Virus record (IMG/VR): IMGVR_UViG_3300029461_000057
Reading direction: 5' to 3' (one strand)
DNA from: a virus
Taxonomy: Duplodnaviria > Heunggongvirae > Uroviricota > Caudoviricetes
Length of the DNA: 5,974 nucleotides
Below are positions 1-5,974 of the stretch, piece after piece. Under the pieces are notes generated by a model, which worked only from the letters and a program-made list of their open reading frames with translations, was not told the DNA's origin and did not search any database. Position numbers and translations under genes: made by a program. Within the stretch, counting starts at the first letter, position 1; each line of letters begins with the position of its first letter.

Positions 1-290
1 CTTTACAGTTAAATCATTTCTTATGCCTTAGTTTCTGATAAAAAAGGTTTTTTTTCACGATTTATAAGTATCAGGTTATGTGAACCGTTCTGAATGTGTA
101 AAAAACGACTGAAAGAAAAGCGGTGGTCCAGACGCCGACAAAAGCACGAACTCGCAAACAAACGCCAAAGTTGGCAATGGCACGCGCTTTTCACGAAAAG
201 AACACCCCGAGATATTGCGTTCGCTGGTGGGAAAACATTCCTGACCCACCTGAAGGCGCAATACATCAGGTTTTAAGCAGAGGAAAGACT

Positions 291-968
291 ATGAATAACA
301 TGACAACGAAAGAGCTTTTGACGGCACTTCCAAAATACAAAAGCCATAAAACAGTTCGCGCCTCAAAAATCAAAGATATCGAAATTATCGCCCTAATGGA
401 TGTGGTCCTTTTTTGCAACATCGAAGTCGTTGAGCCAGAAGGGGTAAAAGTCCATGTTGATAAAATATTTTTGCAAAAACACCGACCAGAAATTGGCGGA
501 TATCTGGTCGCTTATGAGGACGGATCTCTGTCCTATTCACCAGAAAAAACATTTGAAGAAGGCTTTAGTCGGACTAACGACTTCTTCGAAAATGGGGTAT
601 CGCTCAGCATTGAAGGTCACAATGGGGTGACATTCATTACAGCCAGGGACGTAACTATTTCTGCTGGCGGTATCGCTACTCTACAAGAAGAAATCGACCT
701 TGAAGCAGCCGACTTTTCTGACGCGCTGATGTGGCTGAAGGATGGCAAGAAAGTTGCCCGACGCGGGTGGAACGGCGAAAACCAATTCTGCTGGCTGGTT
801 CCTGAAGGACAGTACCCGGCACGAATGGAAGCCATTAAGGGATATTTCCCCGGCGACCTCGTTCCGTATGGTGCTTATTTCGCCTTAAAAAATGCACAAG
901 GTGTAGTTGTTCCGTGGGTTCCTTCTGTAGGCGACTTACTGGCATGTGACTGGTTTGTAGTGGAGTAA
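291..968 (+). CDS. Two-domain hypothetical protein; C-terminal ~80 aa resemble a DUF2829 (Tad2-like) domain, N-terminal ~140 aa unassigned
   Basis: The open frame runs from GTG 123, but ATG 291 is preferred because AGGAAAG (281-287) sits 3-6 nt upstream as a Shine-Dalgarno. Stop TAA at 966-968. C-terminal motifs DALMWLKDGKKVARRGWNG ... PWVPSVGDLLACDWFVV match my recollection of the DUF2829 signature (AL..LK.GKKV.R.GW ... D.LA.DW). Family assignment is from memory, not a search. Confidence 0.75.
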   Translation: MNNMTTKELLTALPKYKSHKTVRASKIKDIEIIALMDVVLFCNIEVVEPEGVKVHVDKIFLQKHRPEIGGYLVAYEDGSLSYSPEKTFEEGFSRTNDFFENGVSLSIEGHNGVTFITARDVTISAGGIATLQEEIDLEAADFSDALMWLKDGKKVARRGWNGENQFCWLVPEGQYPARMEAIKGYFPGDLVPYGAYFALKNAQGVVVPWVPSVGDLLACDWFVVE

Positions 969-974
969 TTTAAC

Positions 975-1757
975 GTGAAAAATACTAAAGCAATTCAATA
1001 CCGCCTGCGTAATGGTCAGAGTGTCGAAGTGACCATCAATAATGATGGTGTGCCTGGCGAAAAGGTTTCGATCTCTGAACTGGCTATCGAAAAAACCATC
1101 ATGTGCCACCTTGGCTTTACTGAAGAAGTGAGCAAAAAGCATGGTGTAGCAATCTGGAGCGCAATGGATACTGGTATGCGCAGATTCATTACTGCTCGTA
1201 CCCCAGGGATGACCATGATGGACCTCATGCAGATTGCGCCGCTGTTTGAATGTGAGCCTTTAGATGTATTCAGCAATCCAGCTATCTGCCAGCAGCTATA
1301 TGGTGAGATGAAACTCGCGGTTACCCCCATTGTGCTGCATGAAGGATCGCTTGCTGGCGTGTGGAAAGTGGAGCGTATTTCAAGCTACATGCCTTTCCAT
1401 GTCAACGGCGTAATCACTGGTGAAAATCAACCTGTTTCCGTTATAAAGTCAGACCTCAAGCGCGCAATTCTTGAAGCAAGTTGTCGAGTTGTCGGCCTGG
1501 GCAAACAGTCTTATGTTTCCTTCCCGGCTGGCCCTGAAGGCCCGGCAGAAATTCTGATTATGGATGCCGATCTGCTCTGGCAAATACAGTTTCTGATTGG
1601 CAAAAGCATCATCCGCGCTGAAGAACTCGATCAGTACATTACCTGCACGATGACGGATGAAGTCAAAAGTGTGGCTATAGCCAATGCCCGGAACCTATGT
1701 CGTGCTGCATTAACAGAACTGCAAGAAAACACCACGGAAGAAGTGGAAAGCGATTAA
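975..1757 (+). CDS. Hypothetical protein (260 aa), no recognisable motif; likely co-transcribed with the upstream gene
   Basis: GTG start at 975 lies 6 nt after the upstream stop, with GGAG (962-965) 9 nt upstream. Uninterrupted 260-codon frame ending TAA 1755-1757, immediately followed by the terminator hairpin. The only antisense ORF (1016..1330) is short and lacks a plausible RBS. Confidence 0.7.
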   Translation: MKNTKAIQYRLRNGQSVEVTINNDGVPGEKVSISELAIEKTIMCHLGFTEEVSKKHGVAIWSAMDTGMRRFITARTPGMTMMDLMQIAPLFECEPLDVFSNPAICQQLYGEMKLAVTPIVLHEGSLAGVWKVERISSYMPFHVNGVITGENQPVSVIKSDLKRAILEASCRVVGLGKQSYVSFPAGPEGPAEILIMDADLLWQIQFLIGKSIIRAEELDQYITCTMTDEVKSVAIANARNLCRAALTELQENTTEEVESD

Positions 1758-1787
1758 AAAAAATCCCGCCGACTGGCGGGATTTCTT
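1756..1787. terminator. Bidirectional rho-independent terminator between convergent operons
   Basis: Perfect 10-bp inverted repeat AAATCCCGCC (1761-1770) / GGCGGGATTT (1775-1784) with 4-nt loop GACT. On the minus-strand transcript the hairpin is followed by an 8-U run (complement of A 1756-1763). On the plus strand it is followed by TTTCTT. It sits exactly between the stop codons at 1755-1757 (+) and 1787-1789 (-). Confidence 0.85.
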
Positions 1788-2098
1788 CAATATACGATCT
1801 GGTCTACATGATCACCAAAATCATCGTCGTCGTCGTCCTCATCGCCACCATCTACTGCTGGCCAATCAACAAACCAGCCAGCGTAAAGATGCAGCGTTCG
1901 GAGAACATCACTTGCGGGAGCATCAAGGGTGTTAACGAATCCCATATAGCTATTGGGATTTGCCCCAGCTATGGCTTCAGCGATCATGTCCTCGGTAATG
2001 TCACCGGAGATAATGCTTAAACGCCCGGAAACTTCTTCATTATCATCAAATTCGATAATGGCATCTCCACCTAATGGCGCTGCGATTTTAATCTGCAT
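1787..2098 (-). CDS. Small highly acidic protein (103 aa) with C-terminal poly-Asp tail; translationally coupled to the upstream large gene
   Basis: ATG at 2096-2098 (minus) is preceded by AAGGAG (complement of 2106-2111) with 7-nt spacing. The start overlaps the last 8 nt of the 995-aa ORF. Stop TGA (1787-1789) abuts the terminator. The protein ends ...DGGDEDDDDDDFGDHVDQIVY. Confidence 0.75.
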   Translation of the reverse strand: MQIKIAAPLGGDAIIEFDDNEEVSGRLSIISGDITEDMIAEAIAGANPNSYMGFVNTLDAPASDVLRTLHLYAGWFVDWPAVDGGDEDDDDDDFGDHVDQIVY

Positions 2099-5075
2099 TA
2101 TTTAGCTCCTTTGCCACACCTAATAACAGTTCCAGCAATCCGTCACCATTCATCAGTGATGCGGCAGCGGCCTCTTTGTCATGATACAACTGAAGAGCCA
2201 TAGAGAATACTTCCGTTGCTGACGTTTTGGAAATAGTCGGTGATTTCTGCCGAATTTTCCCGGTGTTACTTACTGAGGCTGGCGGGTATACCTTCGCCAT
2301 ATAAATATTACTCAATCGAGATCTGAAGCACCATTCAGGCTTGCCACGCCCACCGATATTGACGAAAGATGGCTTATCCCCTTCAACATTGGCCTTCAGG
2401 AATGACCGGGCTTTCTCTAACAAACCAGGGTTACTGTACTCAAGATGATGACCCAGCTCGTGCCACAGTGCACTTGCATTTTCATCGTTCAAATTGACAG
2501 CAACAACACCATTAAGATTTGCATATGCCCTTCCCTGGTGGTGAACTACCTTTGATAAGGTCGATATTTTCCCGCCGGTCAGGCGATAAATATCAGCAAG
2601 TTCCTTGCGCAGGTCTATCCCACCATTCTGTCCAGCGCGGGCTTCTTCCACTTCTTCTGTGATAAAAGAGTCGGCCCACTCAAGAGCTTTTTCTTCAGAT
2701 ACGGATGAGTTTGCGATCGCACTGTTCATGGCAGATAACACTTTCTCGTGGACCGAACCCATACTTCGCTGATTCATTTGCCAGCGTATCTGCGGGTTAT
2801 ATGAGAATCGCTTAAGTAGTTGGTCAAGCTGCTCAAGTTCTTCTTCACTGACATACTTTTTAGCCTCACCAATAATGCCAGGGAGAATATTGCCGTTAGG
2901 ATTAAACGCTCGCGAAAGGAAGAGTTTCAGCGCCCCCATGCCCTCCGATGCTTCAATATCACCAATAACCCGGTTAACAATGGCCGCACTCTTCGGATTA
3001 GCATCCGCCAACGCTCTGGCTACGATTTGCAGGGACGATACGACCTCACGCTGCATATCCGTCCTGATCTCATCAATAAACTCTGGCGTTATGCCGTGCT
3101 CTTTAAGGATATCCCTGCCTTCCGCCGTTACCCCATCGATATCACCGACATGTTTATTAACCCGACTTTGCAATGCCTTAAATGCCTTCAGAATTCCACG
3201 GGCATCATCCGCTTTACTAACGGCCTTCCTGAATGCTGGCAAGAAGTCTGAGTTAACCTCATTTTGTTGATCGGCCCACTGAATGGAGGCTTCTTTCATC
3301 TCGTCCAGAGTCAGATCACCCAACGCGGTATGGTCTGTGAATATGAGCGACAACCTCTGAATCATTTCTGCCAATGGTGATGCCGAATGCGCCGCGCTAA
3401 GGAATGCTTTCACCCTGGTTGGGCGAATGGAAAACCAGTCAATAGCTGGTGGCATATCTCCGTTTTTTATCGCCTGCGCTATCTCATCAAAGCCGTCGCG
3501 CCCAAGGGAGGATGCGTGATTTAACAATCCGCGAAGTAACGAATTGCTGATACCGAATAATCGGCACCATTTATTCACGTCGGCAACAGGCATTCGAACA
3601 AAATGCGCAAGCACTTGTACAAGCTGTTCATCCTGGGGATCTGTACGGGAAAGCAGCCTGATCAGATGAATAATGTCTTTGATGCCGGATGCCCGATGTA
3701 ATAGCAAGCTGGTATATGGAGCAACACCGTTGTAACTACCGCCGGAAACGGACTCGAAAAGACCGCCGGATATCCCTTGCATGCCTTCGTTTTCCAGTTC
3801 CTGAGACACCTGGCGAAGGATATCCTGTAACGACACATCACCACCGCCAAACATATCCCCCAGCGCCTGGCCCTGGTGCTGTAACTCATCATTGATACGT
3901 TGAGCCATCAATTTAAAGGCGGTGGCCATACGCTTCGCGCTACGGTTATTCGCGACGATGAACAACGCGAGTGCTTTCACTTCCGGGGCCGTTTCGCTGA
4001 ACATATCCCCCTGAGCAATAACATCGGTAATATGCTGGCCTGACTCCTTCGATTGCCTTACCAGGTCTACCGCATCTTTCAATGCCGCCAGCGCCTTTTT
4101 ATCGAGGCTATCCGCTGTCTCAATGCCATCAACAATAGTTGTCACAGCCTGCTTGTGCGCTTCTCCTGATAAAGCCTGCATCTGGACAAAATCATTGGCT
4201 GCCGCATTAAGCGCCGTCAGAACATTACGCATATCCGGATCAGGTTCTTCTGCAACCATCCTTACCAGGCGCGCATCCTTATATGCCTTGGCAAAGATCG
4301 CGTTTTGTATACGGTCTACAAGTTGCCGTGTTGGTCGCCCATCTTCAGTTACAAGGCCAGCCGCCTGTGTGGCACCAACTTGCGTCATAAATCCGCGAAT
4401 AAACGCGTCATTACTGCGGCTAAGCAGATCTCCACTTTCTGACGGGTTAAACAACGCCATCATCGCCGGTGTTATGCTGTCGGCATCAACAAAAGCCTTT
4501 TCACTGGCTGCCATTTCCTGGAGATCAGAAATATTTGAGTCCTTGGCAAACTGAACACGGTCAACCTTAGTTAACCGGCGGCGCACCAGTACCGGAGCCG
4601 TCATTGATTCAACCTTTTCAGGAGGTATGCCGAATTCGGTCGCATGTTCAATCAGGTACTCACGATACCGATCCGCATTGCCGTCCTGATAGGCTTTGAT
4701 GATCCCCATGGTCCGTCCATTACCTGACTCAACGGCATTGTCCTCACCAATTATCGGCGCGCCATGGCTGGATAAACCGGAATCAGTAAGCTGAGCAGGC
4801 CGCAAATCTTTGGATATCTGGTTAACCTGAAGAAGGCTGGATGCGCGGGTCCGGTCGCGCGGTTGAAGTTCCTGGGGATAGTCAGGATTAATTTTCCCAT
4901 CCAGAGTATTGGATACCAAAAGAGCTGAGGCATCGACGATATCAAACGCTGTTTTTACCTCGTCTCCCTTCGCTGTCACCACATACGAAACCCGCCCATA
5001 ATCGGGCAGGTTCTTTAGCAGCTCGATCAGCGTTTCTATGCTGGTGGCCATTACCACCTGATCGCTTAAGCTCAT
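2088..5075 (-). CDS. Large multidomain protein (995 aa): N-terminal ParB/sulfiredoxin-like region plus C-terminal HExxH zincin-like metallopeptidase motif; polyvalent-protein-like architecture
   Basis: Single uninterrupted 2988-nt frame with coding-like composition; every overlapping opposite-strand ORF is under 150 aa. Residues ~60-130 read INPDYPQELQPRDRTRASS ... GAPIIGEDNAVESGNGRTMGIIKAY, which parallels the ParB N-domain pattern (P.QPR ... PI.V ... GERR.RA). HELGHH is encoded at 2445-2462 (minus) in the context NASALWHELGHHLEY. The start is ATG 5073-5075, with Met9 at 5049-5051 as an alternative; neither has a strong SD. Confidence 0.9.
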   Translation of the reverse strand: MSLSDQVVMATSIETLIELLKNLPDYGRVSYVVTAKGDEVKTAFDIVDASALLVSNTLDGKINPDYPQELQPRDRTRASSLLQVNQISKDLRPAQLTDSGLSSHGAPIIGEDNAVESGNGRTMGIIKAYQDGNADRYREYLIEHATEFGIPPEKVESMTAPVLVRRRLTKVDRVQFAKDSNISDLQEMAASEKAFVDADSITPAMMALFNPSESGDLLSRSNDAFIRGFMTQVGATQAAGLVTEDGRPTRQLVDRIQNAIFAKAYKDARLVRMVAEEPDPDMRNVLTALNAAANDFVQMQALSGEAHKQAVTTIVDGIETADSLDKKALAALKDAVDLVRQSKESGQHITDVIAQGDMFSETAPEVKALALFIVANNRSAKRMATAFKLMAQRINDELQHQGQALGDMFGGGDVSLQDILRQVSQELENEGMQGISGGLFESVSGGSYNGVAPYTSLLLHRASGIKDIIHLIRLLSRTDPQDEQLVQVLAHFVRMPVADVNKWCRLFGISNSLLRGLLNHASSLGRDGFDEIAQAIKNGDMPPAIDWFSIRPTRVKAFLSAAHSASPLAEMIQRLSLIFTDHTALGDLTLDEMKEASIQWADQQNEVNSDFLPAFRKAVSKADDARGILKAFKALQSRVNKHVGDIDGVTAEGRDILKEHGITPEFIDEIRTDMQREVVSSLQIVARALADANPKSAAIVNRVIGDIEASEGMGALKLFLSRAFNPNGNILPGIIGEAKKYVSEEELEQLDQLLKRFSYNPQIRWQMNQRSMGSVHEKVLSAMNSAIANSSVSEEKALEWADSFITEEVEEARAGQNGGIDLRKELADIYRLTGGKISTLSKVVHHQGRAYANLNGVVAVNLNDENASALWHELGHHLEYSNPGLLEKARSFLKANVEGDKPSFVNIGGRGKPEWCFRSRLSNIYMAKVYPPASVSNTGKIRQKSPTISKTSATEVFSMALQLYHDKEAAAASLMNGDGLLELLLGVAKELNNAD

Positions 5076-5102
5076 CCCTGTTACGCCTTATCCAATGTGC
5101 CG

Positions 5103-5126
5103 CCCCCTACGCTCCTCATAGTGGGG
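5103..5126 (+). other. Candidate imperfect hairpin (7-bp stem with one bulged T, 9-nt loop); possible IS200/IS605 left-end subterminal hairpin
   Basis: CCCCCTA (5103-5109) pairs with TAG(T)GGGG (5119-5126) if T5122 is extrahelical; loop CGCTCCTCA. It lies ~50 nt upstream of the tnpB start, where left-end hairpins of this IS family sit. Weak, judged by eye. Confidence 0.25.
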
Positions 5127-5174
5127 ATATAAGGCACAGTTTTCCTCCCGGCTATTTTTGCTTAAAATAGTGAC

Positions 5175-5974
5175 ATGAAACAACAGGTGTCATTCAAATT
5201 CCGGTTAAAACCAGATGGTCAACAGGAGCGTCAAATGAGGCGCTTTGCCGGAGCTTGTCGTTTCGTTTTCAACCGTGCTCTGGCGCTTCAGAATGAGAAT
5301 CATGAGGCCGGTAAAAAATACATCCCTTACACGAAAATGGCTTCCTGGTTGGTTGAGTGGAAAAAAGACACTGAAACCGAATGGCTTAAAGATTCTCCCT
5401 CACAGCCATTGCAACAGTCACTGAAAGACCTTGAGCGGGCTTACAAAAACTTCTTCCAGAATCGGGCAGCTTTTCCCCGATTCAAAAAGCGGGGACAGAA
5501 TGATGCATTCCGCTACCCGCAGGGTGTTAAGCTCGATCAGGAAAACAGCCGTATTTTTCTGCCGAAACTTGGCTGGATGCGCTACCGGAATAGCCGTCAG
5601 GTCACGGGTATTGTGAAAAATGTTACTGTCAGCCAGTCCTGCGGTAAGTGGTACATCAGTATTCAGACAGAAAGAGAGGTATCCACTCCTGTTCACCCTT
5701 CAGCATCAATGGTCGGACTGGATGCTGGCGTGGCTAAACTCGCCACGCTGTCAGATGGCACAGTCTTTGAACCTGTAAATAGTTTTCAGAAAAACCAGAA
5801 GAAGCTGGCGAGACTTCAGCGACAGTTAAGCCGCAAGGTCAAATTCAGCAACAACTGGCAGAAGCAGAAACGCAAAATACAGCGACTGCATTCCCGTATC
5901 GCAAATATCCGCAGGGACTACCTTCACAAAGTCACAACGACCGTCAGCAAAAACCACGCAATGATTGTCATTGA
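5175..5974 (+). CDS. tnpB: IS200/IS605-family TnpB (RNA-guided endonuclease / OrfB), 5' portion; continues past the window end
   Basis: ATG at 5175-5177 opens a frame that runs to the window edge (266 codons, no stop). Translation MKQQVSFKFRLKPDGQQERQMRRFAGACRFVFNRAL ... MVGLDAGVAKLATLSDG is typical of the TnpB N-terminal region, and GLDAG (5715-5729) is the RuvC-I motif with the catalytic Asp. It is missing from the supplied ORF track only because it has no stop inside the window. Confidence 0.9.
   Translation, partial: MKQQVSFKFRLKPDGQQERQMRRFAGACRFVFNRALALQNENHEAGKKYIPYTKMASWLVEWKKDTETEWLKDSPSQPLQQSLKDLERAYKNFFQNRAAFPRFKKRGQNDAFRYPQGVKLDQENSRIFLPKLGWMRYRNSRQVTGIVKNVTVSQSCGKWYISIQTEREVSTPVHPSASMVGLDAGVAKLATLSDGTVFEPVNSFQKNQKKLARLQRQLSRKVKFSNNWQKQKRKIQRLHSRIANIRRDYLHKVTTTVSKNHAMIVI

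Follow-up and report, generated by a model that had tools for sequence, protein, structure and literature searches.

A two-gene module beside a TnpB-only insertion sequence corresponds to the ddrB-hxr end of the P1 darA operon

The 5,974-nucleotide viral stretch analyzed here (the window) carries a gene for a large multidomain protein that overlaps a gene for a small acidic protein, with an insertion sequence (IS) on one side and a possible anti-defence gene on the other. Such an arrangement raises the question of whether the pair is an undescribed defence or counter-defence system, as originally predicted, or a displaced part of a known one. The features of the locus are listed in Table 1.

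The two genes correspond to ddrB and hxr of bacteriophage P1. The large protein is identical to P1 DdrB at 983 of 995 residues, without gaps (99%), and the small protein to P1 Hxr at 100 of 103 (97%). A match to phrog_2299 spans the full length of DdrB, while Hxr matches phrog_2292 (unknown function). The name ddrB is given in the records of P1, RCS47 and further phages. The sequence leaves little doubt that the window comes from an Enterobacteriaceae phage-plasmid of the P1-like kind (Punavirus), and ddrB and hxr are very likely the last two cistrons of its late darA operon. The P1 record annotates this operon in the order LPdar-lydA-lydB-hdf-darA-ddrA-ddrB-hxr, with ddrB-hxr transcribed as its distal end. 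A near-identical (99.3%) plasmid, L001, has the order lydA-lydB-hdf-darA-ddrA-[IS]-ddrB-hxr, and the same darA operon order is kept in lineages that are 44–60% identical. The neighbours in ∼99% identical plasmids of 95–103 kb, and in phages SJ46, RCS47 and P1, are ssb, darA, hdf, lydAB, cin and tail-fibre genes.

Table 1. Positions of the features discussed, numbered from the first letter of the window.
Feature	Position	Strand	Basis
Phage ssb, 3′ end	1..93	+	Annotation of L001 and P1
DUF2829 / Tad2-like domain protein, outside the Dar operon	291..968	+	PF11195, E = 1.6e-22
IsaA-like 260-aa protein	975..1757	+	phrog_2326; 94% identical to residues 60–320 of P1 IsaA
Intrinsic terminator 3′ of hxr, between convergent hxr and isaA-like genes	1756..1788	-	Fold energy
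hxr; acidic protein of 103 aa with a poly-Asp tail (pI 4.05), its translation coupled to that of ddrB	1787..2098	-	Identity to P1 Hxr
Coupling junction: AAGGAG Shine-Dalgarno (2111-2106) inside ddrB and 11-nt overlap ATGCAGATTAA (2098-2088)	2088..2111	-	Direct sequence reading
ddrB; 995-aa ORF; internal head protein of the virion, part of the Dar anti-restriction system of P1	2088..5075	-	Identity to P1 DdrB
C-terminal HExxH module of DdrB, predicted zincin-like metallopeptidase	2091..2642	-	HELGH motif
Conserved DdrB N-terminal module, ∼445 residues, enclosing the ParB/Srx-like domain	3741-5075	-	Invariant columns
DdrB-type ParB/sulfiredoxin-like domain, residues 36–167	4575..4970	-	PF18763 ddrB-ParB, E = 1.9e-39
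ddrA-ddrB junction remnant: 12-nt spacer and TTAT	5076..5091	-	Comparison with the P1 junction
Left part of TnpB-only IS200/IS605-family element; TnpB CDS from 5175	5092..5974	+	Pfam OrfB_IS605, HTH_OrfB_IS605, Cas12f1-like TNB

An intact pair is present at ≥95% identity in 425 PLSDB plasmids. The two genes stay together across divergent P1-like elements, in agreement with the expectation that they are conserved as a unit. A locus that seemed to carry hxr without ddrB (L003) was rejected as an exception, as ∼95 nt from the 3′ end of ddrB are still present upstream on its contig, which therefore reflects a deletion or a fragmented assembly. A DdrB search of genome contigs returned just two near-identical loci.

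The phage head carries the Dar proteins of P1, which are injected and shield the phage DNA from host restriction (PMC12810830, PMC9024508, PMC5512222). DdrB is made late and enters the procapsid after Hdf, DarA and DdrA in an ordered packaging process (PMC12810830), and it is required to load DarB and Ulx (PMC12810830, PMC9024508, PMC5512222). The P1 virion proteome contains 39 DdrB peptides, with the role listed as “aids DarB addition to capsid” (PMC9024508); the virion form is a processed protein of ∼76 kDa (PMC5512222). The locus shares with the P1 Dar system the same DdrB, the operon neighbours ddrA, darA, hdf, lydB and lydA, and the phage-plasmid backbone; it differs in that a TnpB-only IS splits ddrA from ddrB. 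Capsid-packaged proteins injected against restriction are also found in T4 (internal proteins such as IPI*), a functional analogy without homology to ddrB-hxr. By sequence, the pair is thus the already known P1 Dar anti-restriction genes and not an undescribed system. The claim that it matches no named system fails on the ground that the original prediction itself had set, a match to a characterized system, given the identities to DdrB and Hxr and the darA operon context.

A large multidomain protein with a coupled small acidic partner and a terminator of its own, adjoined by an IS and an anti-defence-like gene, could equally suggest an autonomous, undescribed two-gene defence or toxin-antitoxin-like module (a large effector with a small antitoxin or regulator) in accessory DNA. 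The probability of such a module is close to nil in view of the near-identity of both proteins to P1 DdrB and Hxr and the constant position of the pair in the late darA operon near darA, hdf and ddrA, even in the 44–60% identical lineages. Moreover, DdrB belongs to the virion, the window yielded no local promoter, and the IS has inserted into the operon in only ∼18% of carriers. None of the four window proteins matched PADLOC-DB v2 at E-values up to 0.1, and none matched NCBIfam; the pair is not a host defence system. What survives of the overall reading is its counter-defence kind: the suggested alternative of an injected anti-defence pair was right in kind, as DdrB is a virion-packaged Dar component (PMC12810830, PMC9024508, PMC5512222). 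The parts that called it undescribed, a defence system or autonomous do not stand. The main value of this result is negative, as a false candidate for a new defence system is removed.

The IS was correctly recognized on one flank, where an IS200/IS605 TnpB element runs from position 5092 to the end of the window. The part of TnpB inside the window matches OrfB_IS605 (2e-29) and HTH_OrfB_IS605 (2e-16), and the full-length TnpB in L001 matches HTH_OrfB_IS605 (1.6e-16), the RuvC-containing OrfB_IS605 (1.5e-34) and the TNB zinc finger (2.4e-24). The element resembles other TnpB-only members of the IS200/IS605 family (insQ / IS609-like) in these three domains, and also in its insertion 3′ of a short target, here TTAT; no tnpA lies between ddrA and ddrB. 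The right end is outside the window; in plasmid NZ_OY754380, which is near-identical (99.3%), the whole IS measures 1335 bp. The P1 junction reads CTCAT-CCGTGTTACGCC-TTAT-GCTGCC. TTAT is the target of the IS, and its TTA is the former ddrA stop codon on the minus strand, so that the insertion point is exactly the ddrA stop codon. In antisense orientation, the IS parts ddrB-hxr from ddrA, darA, hdf and the late promoter LPdar. The pair looks like a free-standing module because the IS splits the darA operon at this stop codon. The IS interrupts a late operon of a phage and is not the edge of an island, contrary to the view of an autonomous module in accessory DNA. This case shows that an IS in a phage operon can make the distal genes resemble an independent accessory module.

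The predicted coupling of the two ORFs and the strong terminator are both borne out. The hxr ATG (2098-2096) lies 11 nt within the 3′ end of ddrB, whose stop codon is at 2090-2088, and the AAGGAG Shine-Dalgarno sequence is 7 nt upstream of this ATG. Both the overlap and the Shine-Dalgarno sequence are also present in divergent relatives. The terminator is a hairpin, AAATCCCGCC-AGTC-GGCGGGATTT, followed by a T8 run, with a fold energy of −22.6 kcal/mol (z = −5.0 against shuffled sequences, 0 of 200 of which were equally stable); it was missing from the output of a generic terminator scan. No P1 Lpa-dependent late-promoter box, modelled on LPpro, LPlyz and LPdar, was found in the window at ≥14/19 matches, and a generic promoter scan of the window gave fewer sigma-70-like matches than shuffled sequences did. 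Thus, no promoter specific to the pair can be recognized, in contrast to its terminator.

With an antisense 1335-bp IS between ddrA and ddrB, and neither a late-promoter box nor a convincing sigma-70 promoter upstream of ddrB in the window, this allele might be a transcriptionally orphaned, decaying remnant that the IS has cut off from LPdar. We regard decay as quite unlikely, since both reading frames remain whole, at ≥97% identity to P1, read-through from LPdar across the IS is plausible, and the IS-bearing arrangement has been kept in 75 plasmids, 11 viral contigs and the phage records of SJ46 and RCS47.

DdrB consists of a conserved ParB/Srx-like N-terminal module, a hypervariable middle region and a C-terminal HExxH module. 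PF18763 scores 135 bits on DdrB, compared to a cut-off of 27.6, and P1 DdrB is the prototype of this ddrB-ParB family (PMC5512222). Residues 27–441 contain many invariant columns in 15 diverse homologues. The identity of the N-terminal module is 57–99% across lineages, while that of the middle region falls to 5–28% in every compared lineage but the near-identical L095 (98%). At the C-terminus, HELGH occupies residues 872–876 (nt 2448-2462), and the H, E, G and H of the HExGH..E pattern, as well as its downstream E, are invariant in 12 divergent DdrB C-termini. Iyer et al. (2017) assigned this region as an MPTase (PMC5512222), and its predicted peptidase nature is based on that assignment and on the motif. 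Searches of the C-terminus against Pfam, of its profile against the PDB and of whole DdrB against the PDB gave nothing convincing; the best real metalloprotease in the profile search was ADAM8 (E = 1.9). A single-sequence AlphaFold2 model of DdrB (pLDDT 38.5) was too low in confidence for a fold search. A DdrB-type ParB/Srx domain combined with a C-terminal zincin-like MPTase (in DdrB here, a predicted one), in late-gene products delivered by the virion, characterizes the polyvalent proteins of Iyer, Burroughs, Anand, de Souza and Aravind (2017; PMC5512222). An antisense ORF within ddrB (iddB, 4123-4554, plus strand) was considered and rejected as a real gene, as conservation of an antisense ORF at this position is inconsistent among divergent ddrB sequences.

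The remaining novelty of the locus lies in Hxr, the small acidic partner, for which a role can be predicted. Hxr is not among the six Dar proteins of the literature (DarA, Hdf, DdrA, DdrB, DarB and Ulx), and neither Hxr nor a conserved small acidic partner is mentioned in PMC5512222. The family is narrow, being found in P1-like elements only, and Hxr matched no Pfam family. The AF2 model of Hxr has an alpha/beta core and gave no structural match.

P1 record NC_005856 describes Hxr as “possible repressor; homolog of Xre”, with 28% identity over ∼60 residues, and the protein could accordingly be an Xre-like transcriptional repressor of phage or host genes that is independent of DdrB. Hxr resembles the HTH repressors of the Xre family in small size alone. 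It differs from them in the absence of an HTH signature (e.g. PF01381 HTH_3), in a pI near 4 and in a predicted mixed alpha/beta fold without structural match, which together make a repressor very improbable. We infer that Hxr has been mis-annotated and is not of the Xre type.

The occurrence of Hxr points instead to the C-terminal part of DdrB. An overlapping small acidic ORF (pI 4.05–4.33) follows ddrB in 11 of 11 lineages that bear HExxH and in 0 of 4 that lack it, a sample of ∼15 lineages in which adjacency and shared ancestry are confounding. This co-occurrence is an observation new in this analysis. In three lineages (L014, L176 and L177) the small acidic ORF has no detectable homology to Hxr, and Vibrio-type Dar operons are without a small acidic gene. 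The identity of Hxr tracks that of the DdrB C-terminus best (Spearman 0.82, compared to 0.69 for the N-terminal module). In L095, for example, the N-terminal module is 99% identical, the middle region 98%, the C-terminus 80% and Hxr 62%. A search of viral contigs with the C-terminal profile returned P1 clones alone and did not widen the co-occurrence test. The association is correlative. Because the acidic gene tracks the HExxH module, Hxr probably serves the DdrB C-terminus as a dedicated partner.

Hxr might alternatively be an anti-defence effector of the acidic DNA-mimic type, like Ocr or ArdA, that targets a nuclease or other defence protein of the host, its co-transcription with ddrB being incidental. 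The protein is very acidic, its acidic C-terminal tail is conserved across lineages, tandem-duplicated versions exist (P0135 and P0148), and the gene is located in an anti-restriction operon. However, Hxr resembles no known DNA mimic (Ocr, ArdA) in sequence or fold. Hxr is also not listed among the proteins identified in P1 virions (PMC9024508), and the product of a late gene would come too late for incoming DNA unless packaged. In addition, hxr strictly accompanies the HExxH module and not the Dar operon as such (it is lacking from the Vibrio-type operons), which argues for a DdrB-specific role, and we consider a DNA-mimic function unlikely. Absence from the proteome is weak evidence, because Hxr has few good tryptic peptides (IAAPLGGDAIIEFDDNEEVSGR is one suited to targeted proteomics), though Hxr itself is probably not a major virion protein. 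CRISPRi knock-down of hxr and of ddrB caused no plaque defect (PMC10695390), as would be expected because these are anti-restriction genes on a non-restricting host; the result reveals no function for Hxr.

As a dedicated partner, Hxr would be made in step with DdrB and would act on, or together with, its HExxH-bearing C-terminal part in the producer cell, perhaps as an inhibitor, a chaperone or a processing cofactor. The pair is then reminiscent of effectors with immunity proteins or chaperones (polymorphic-toxin immunity proteins, protease pro-domains, inhibitors), in which a large delivered effector is likewise coupled to a small co-evolving partner; these are functional analogues without homology. 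A partner of the half of DdrB that bears the predicted metallopeptidase would be relevant to the processing and loading of the Dar cargo. We tentatively suggest, as a possibility still short of an even chance, that Hxr is a seventh Dar component with an orphan fold, co-evolving with and needed by the HExxH metallopeptidase module. In that role it might keep the peptidase inactive, or fold it, until capsid loading; alternatively, it might direct the self-processing of DdrB to the packaged 76-kDa form. If this is true, P1 records have borne a wrong label, “Xre homologue”, since 2004.

Outside the question of Hxr, the ddrA/ddrB junction is a repeated landing site of unrelated TnpB elements. The guides of such elements would match P1 relatives that lack the IS, the candidate target here being TTAT plus GCTGCCTCTTTAATGTTGGC. 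An Rfam search of the window identified no RNA family.

On the left flank, the proposed Tad2-like gene was confirmed by its PF11195 match (cut-off, 25 bits). Its likeness to Tad2 (Thoeris anti-defence 2) consists of the Tad2-like / DUF2829 domain and is known here from sequence. The gene is absent from P1 itself, where the ssb-hxr interval contains IS1 and isaB; here, the Tad2-like gene takes their place.

The two genes are the already known ddrB-hxr end of the Dar anti-restriction operon of phage P1. The large protein is identical to P1 DdrB at 983 of 995 positions and the small protein to P1 Hxr at 100 of 103; in the P1 reference genome, LPdar drives a late operon (lydA, lydB, hdf, darA, ddrA, ddrB, hxr) that ends with these two genes. 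By Megablast, the entire window was matched at 99% identity in non-mobilizable E. coli and Salmonella plasmids of 95–103 kb, as well as in phages SJ46, RCS47 and P1. The neighbors in plasmid NZ_OY754380 (99.3% identical) are as in P1, with DarB methylase/helicase, portal, Pro, lysozyme and ssb on one side of the window and ddrA, darA, hdf, lydB, holins, cin and tail fibers on the other. Intact ddrB-hxr is present in 425 PLSDB plasmids at an identity of at least 95%. PADLOC gave no matches on the window. The elements described in the original prediction are all real (ORF pair, overlap, acidic small protein, terminator, and IS and Tad2-like flanks; see the table). Since the pair matches a characterized system, the proposal of an undescribed one is refuted; the alternative offered, injected anti-defence, named the right class, as DdrB is a Dar component that enters the cell from the P1 head. 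A 99%-identical P1 ddrB-hxr also occurs on a 7-kb contig labelled MAG: Bacillota bacterium (L005, JAFAFU010000075.1), which most likely derives from an enterobacterial phage-plasmid and was mis-binned.

Features of the window and of compared loci (L numbers; L001, plasmid NZ_OY754380; L002, P1)
Feature	Location	Strand	Remarks
ssb end			left of pair
Tad2-like/DUF2829 gene	291–968	+	225 aa; C-terminal PF11195 domain, E = 1.6e-22; left of pair, between ssb and isaA-like gene
isaA-like gene	975–1757	+	260 aa; left of pair
Terminator-type hairpin	1788–1756	-	GC-rich, then T8; directly 3' of hxr stop codon; -22.6 kcal/mol, z = -5.0 vs shuffles
hxr	1787–2098	-	103 aa; 11-nt overlap with ddrB
AAGGAG upstream of hxr ATG	2111–2106		within ddrB
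ddrB	2088–5075	-	995 aa
Encoded DdrB middle	2679–3740		residues ~446–800
Antisense ORF in ddrB	4123–4554	+	143 aa; corresponds to P1 'iddB'
tnpB, IS200/IS605 family	from 5092	+	right of pair, opposite strand
TnpB insertions at ddrA stop	window 5088–5974; L001 17008–18342; L006/L007 ~3703–4990; L070–L072
ssb-hxr cargo, window	94–1786		Tad2-like and isaA-like genes
ssb-hxr cargo, P1	L002 6010–8713		isaA, IS1, isaB
ssb-hxr cargo	L095 6556–8335		porin gene
ssb-hxr cargo, Salmonella lineage	L006 8277–8307		empty
Tandem-duplicated hxr	L095 6001–6555		protein P0135
Stand-alone N-module gene	L087–L094, about 2980–4377		~450 aa

The pair looked autonomous because the IS splits it from the promoter-proximal genes of the operon. 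In P1, 12 nt separate the ddrA stop codon from the ddrB start. In the window, a TnpB-only element sits exactly between TTAT (5088–5091) and GCTGCC, the TTA being the ddrA stop codon in the minus-strand reading. The full IS copy is 1335 bp, lies antisense to the operon and provides a new TGA stop for ddrA. Neither a P1 late-promoter box nor a convincing sigma-70 promoter was found upstream of ddrB in the window; the pair has its own terminator without its own promoter, and its expression must presumably depend on LPdar read-through. This IS occupies the junction in about 75 of ~425 plasmid carriers and in 11 of the ~58 viral contigs of P1 type. The exact insertion nucleotide, between TTAT and GCTGCC where ddrA stops, and the orientation are shared by two TnpB-only IS200/IS605 elements that are unrelated, with just 35% identity between their TnpB proteins. 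They occupy two P1-like lineages with DdrB proteins only 60% identical, and empty sites exist in both. Such an element would have an omega-RNA guide matching, beside a TTAT motif, the 3' end of ddrA in P1 relatives that lack the IS; speculatively, IS-bearing prophages might cut these relatives. This recurrent site is a modest remaining lead.

Six Dar proteins are packed into the P1 head and co-ejected with the DNA, which they shield in cis against type I restriction and BREX (PMC12810830; PMC12707154). Head loading is ordered, with Hdf and DarA first and DdrA, DdrB, DarB and Ulx afterwards (PMC12810830). DdrB is represented in virions by 39 peptides, and its listed role is to help add DarB to the capsid (PMC9024508). 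Plaques form without ddrB or hxr, both of which are non-essential (PMC10695390).

The "DdrB-like ParB" domain has P1 DdrB as its prototype (Iyer et al. 2017, PMC5512222). Residues 36–167 match PF18763 (E = 1.9e-39), and residues ~27–441 contain dozens of invariant positions among 15 homologues. This N-module is also found as a stand-alone gene (64–65% identical to P1) on viral contigs of another phage group, directly upstream of a ~560-aa and a ~330-aa gene, and thus constitutes a functional unit in its own right. The middle stretch (residues ~446–810) is hypervariable, with 5–28% identity between lineages whose N-modules are 57–90% identical; the modules flanking it are 37–90% identical in the same lineages. 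This pattern points to shuffling of modules or to diversifying selection in an injected protein. An invariant HExGH..E motif lies within the C-terminal ~185 residues, which have no Pfam or PDB sequence-profile match, and a single-sequence structure model of DdrB was of no use; the assignment as a predicted metallopeptidase therefore relies on this motif and a published analysis, which predicted a C-terminal zincin-like metallopeptidase and self-processing to the packaged 76-kDa form (Iyer et al. 2017, PMC5512222). The antisense iddB-type ORF is probably not a gene, its counterparts in divergent ddrB genes being broken or differing in position or length.

Hxr is the sole part with residual novelty. 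P1 records label it "possible repressor; homolog of Xre", and HTH families gave no match to Hxr or to any of 17 homologues, even at E-values up to 10. The protein is very acidic (pI 4.05), with a run of six Asp. In an AlphaFold2 model based on 18 homologues, residues 1–80 form a confidently predicted core (pLDDT about 84), in which three β-strands precede a helix, short strands and another helix; the acidic tail beyond this core is disordered. The family is tiny, with 19 representatives among 1.8 billion proteins; a larger collection yielded 28 clusters, and all of these members are on contigs of P1-like size. In some P1-like elements, the gene for a 997-aa DdrB is followed by one for a tandem-duplicated Hxr (184–187 aa, two Hxr domains per polypeptide; P0135 and P0148). 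Re-annotation of Hxr, together with its possible role, is the other modest lead.

Hxr and ddrB behave as one unit. Where DdrB is only 60%, 44% or ~38% identical, its gene still overlaps that of an Hxr homologue in which the W..VxWP motif and the acidic tail are conserved. Downstream of each of the more distant HExxH-bearing ddrB genes (L013, L014, L083-85, L176-178) lies an ORF of 90–134 aa with pI 4.05–4.33 that overlaps or abuts it. No small acidic gene follows DdrB proteins that lack the HExxH module, namely Vibrio-type ParB+InPase proteins (L012, L179), stand-alone N-modules of 450–465 aa beside a portal-like gene (L087-94) and a truncated allele (L076). Thus, a downstream small acidic ORF is present in 11 of 11 HExxH-bearing lineages versus none of four HExxH-free ones. 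Hxr identity also tracks the DdrB C-terminus (Spearman 0.82) more than the N-module (0.69); in L095, the N-module is 99%, the middle 98%, the C-terminus 80% and Hxr 62% identical. The same pattern could arise from adjacency and common descent. Hxr is not on the virion protein list, which is weak evidence given its few good tryptic peptides. Tentatively, these observations would fit Hxr as a partner of the DdrB metallopeptidase module in the producer cell, serving as an inhibitor, a chaperone or a processing cofactor, a reading we consider possible rather than probable.

On the other side of hxr, the interval to ssb serves P1-like elements as a slot for variable cargo. P1 has no Tad2-like gene, its leader running directly into isaA; many P1-like plasmids and phage D6 carry one, which is possible Thoeris counter-defence cargo.
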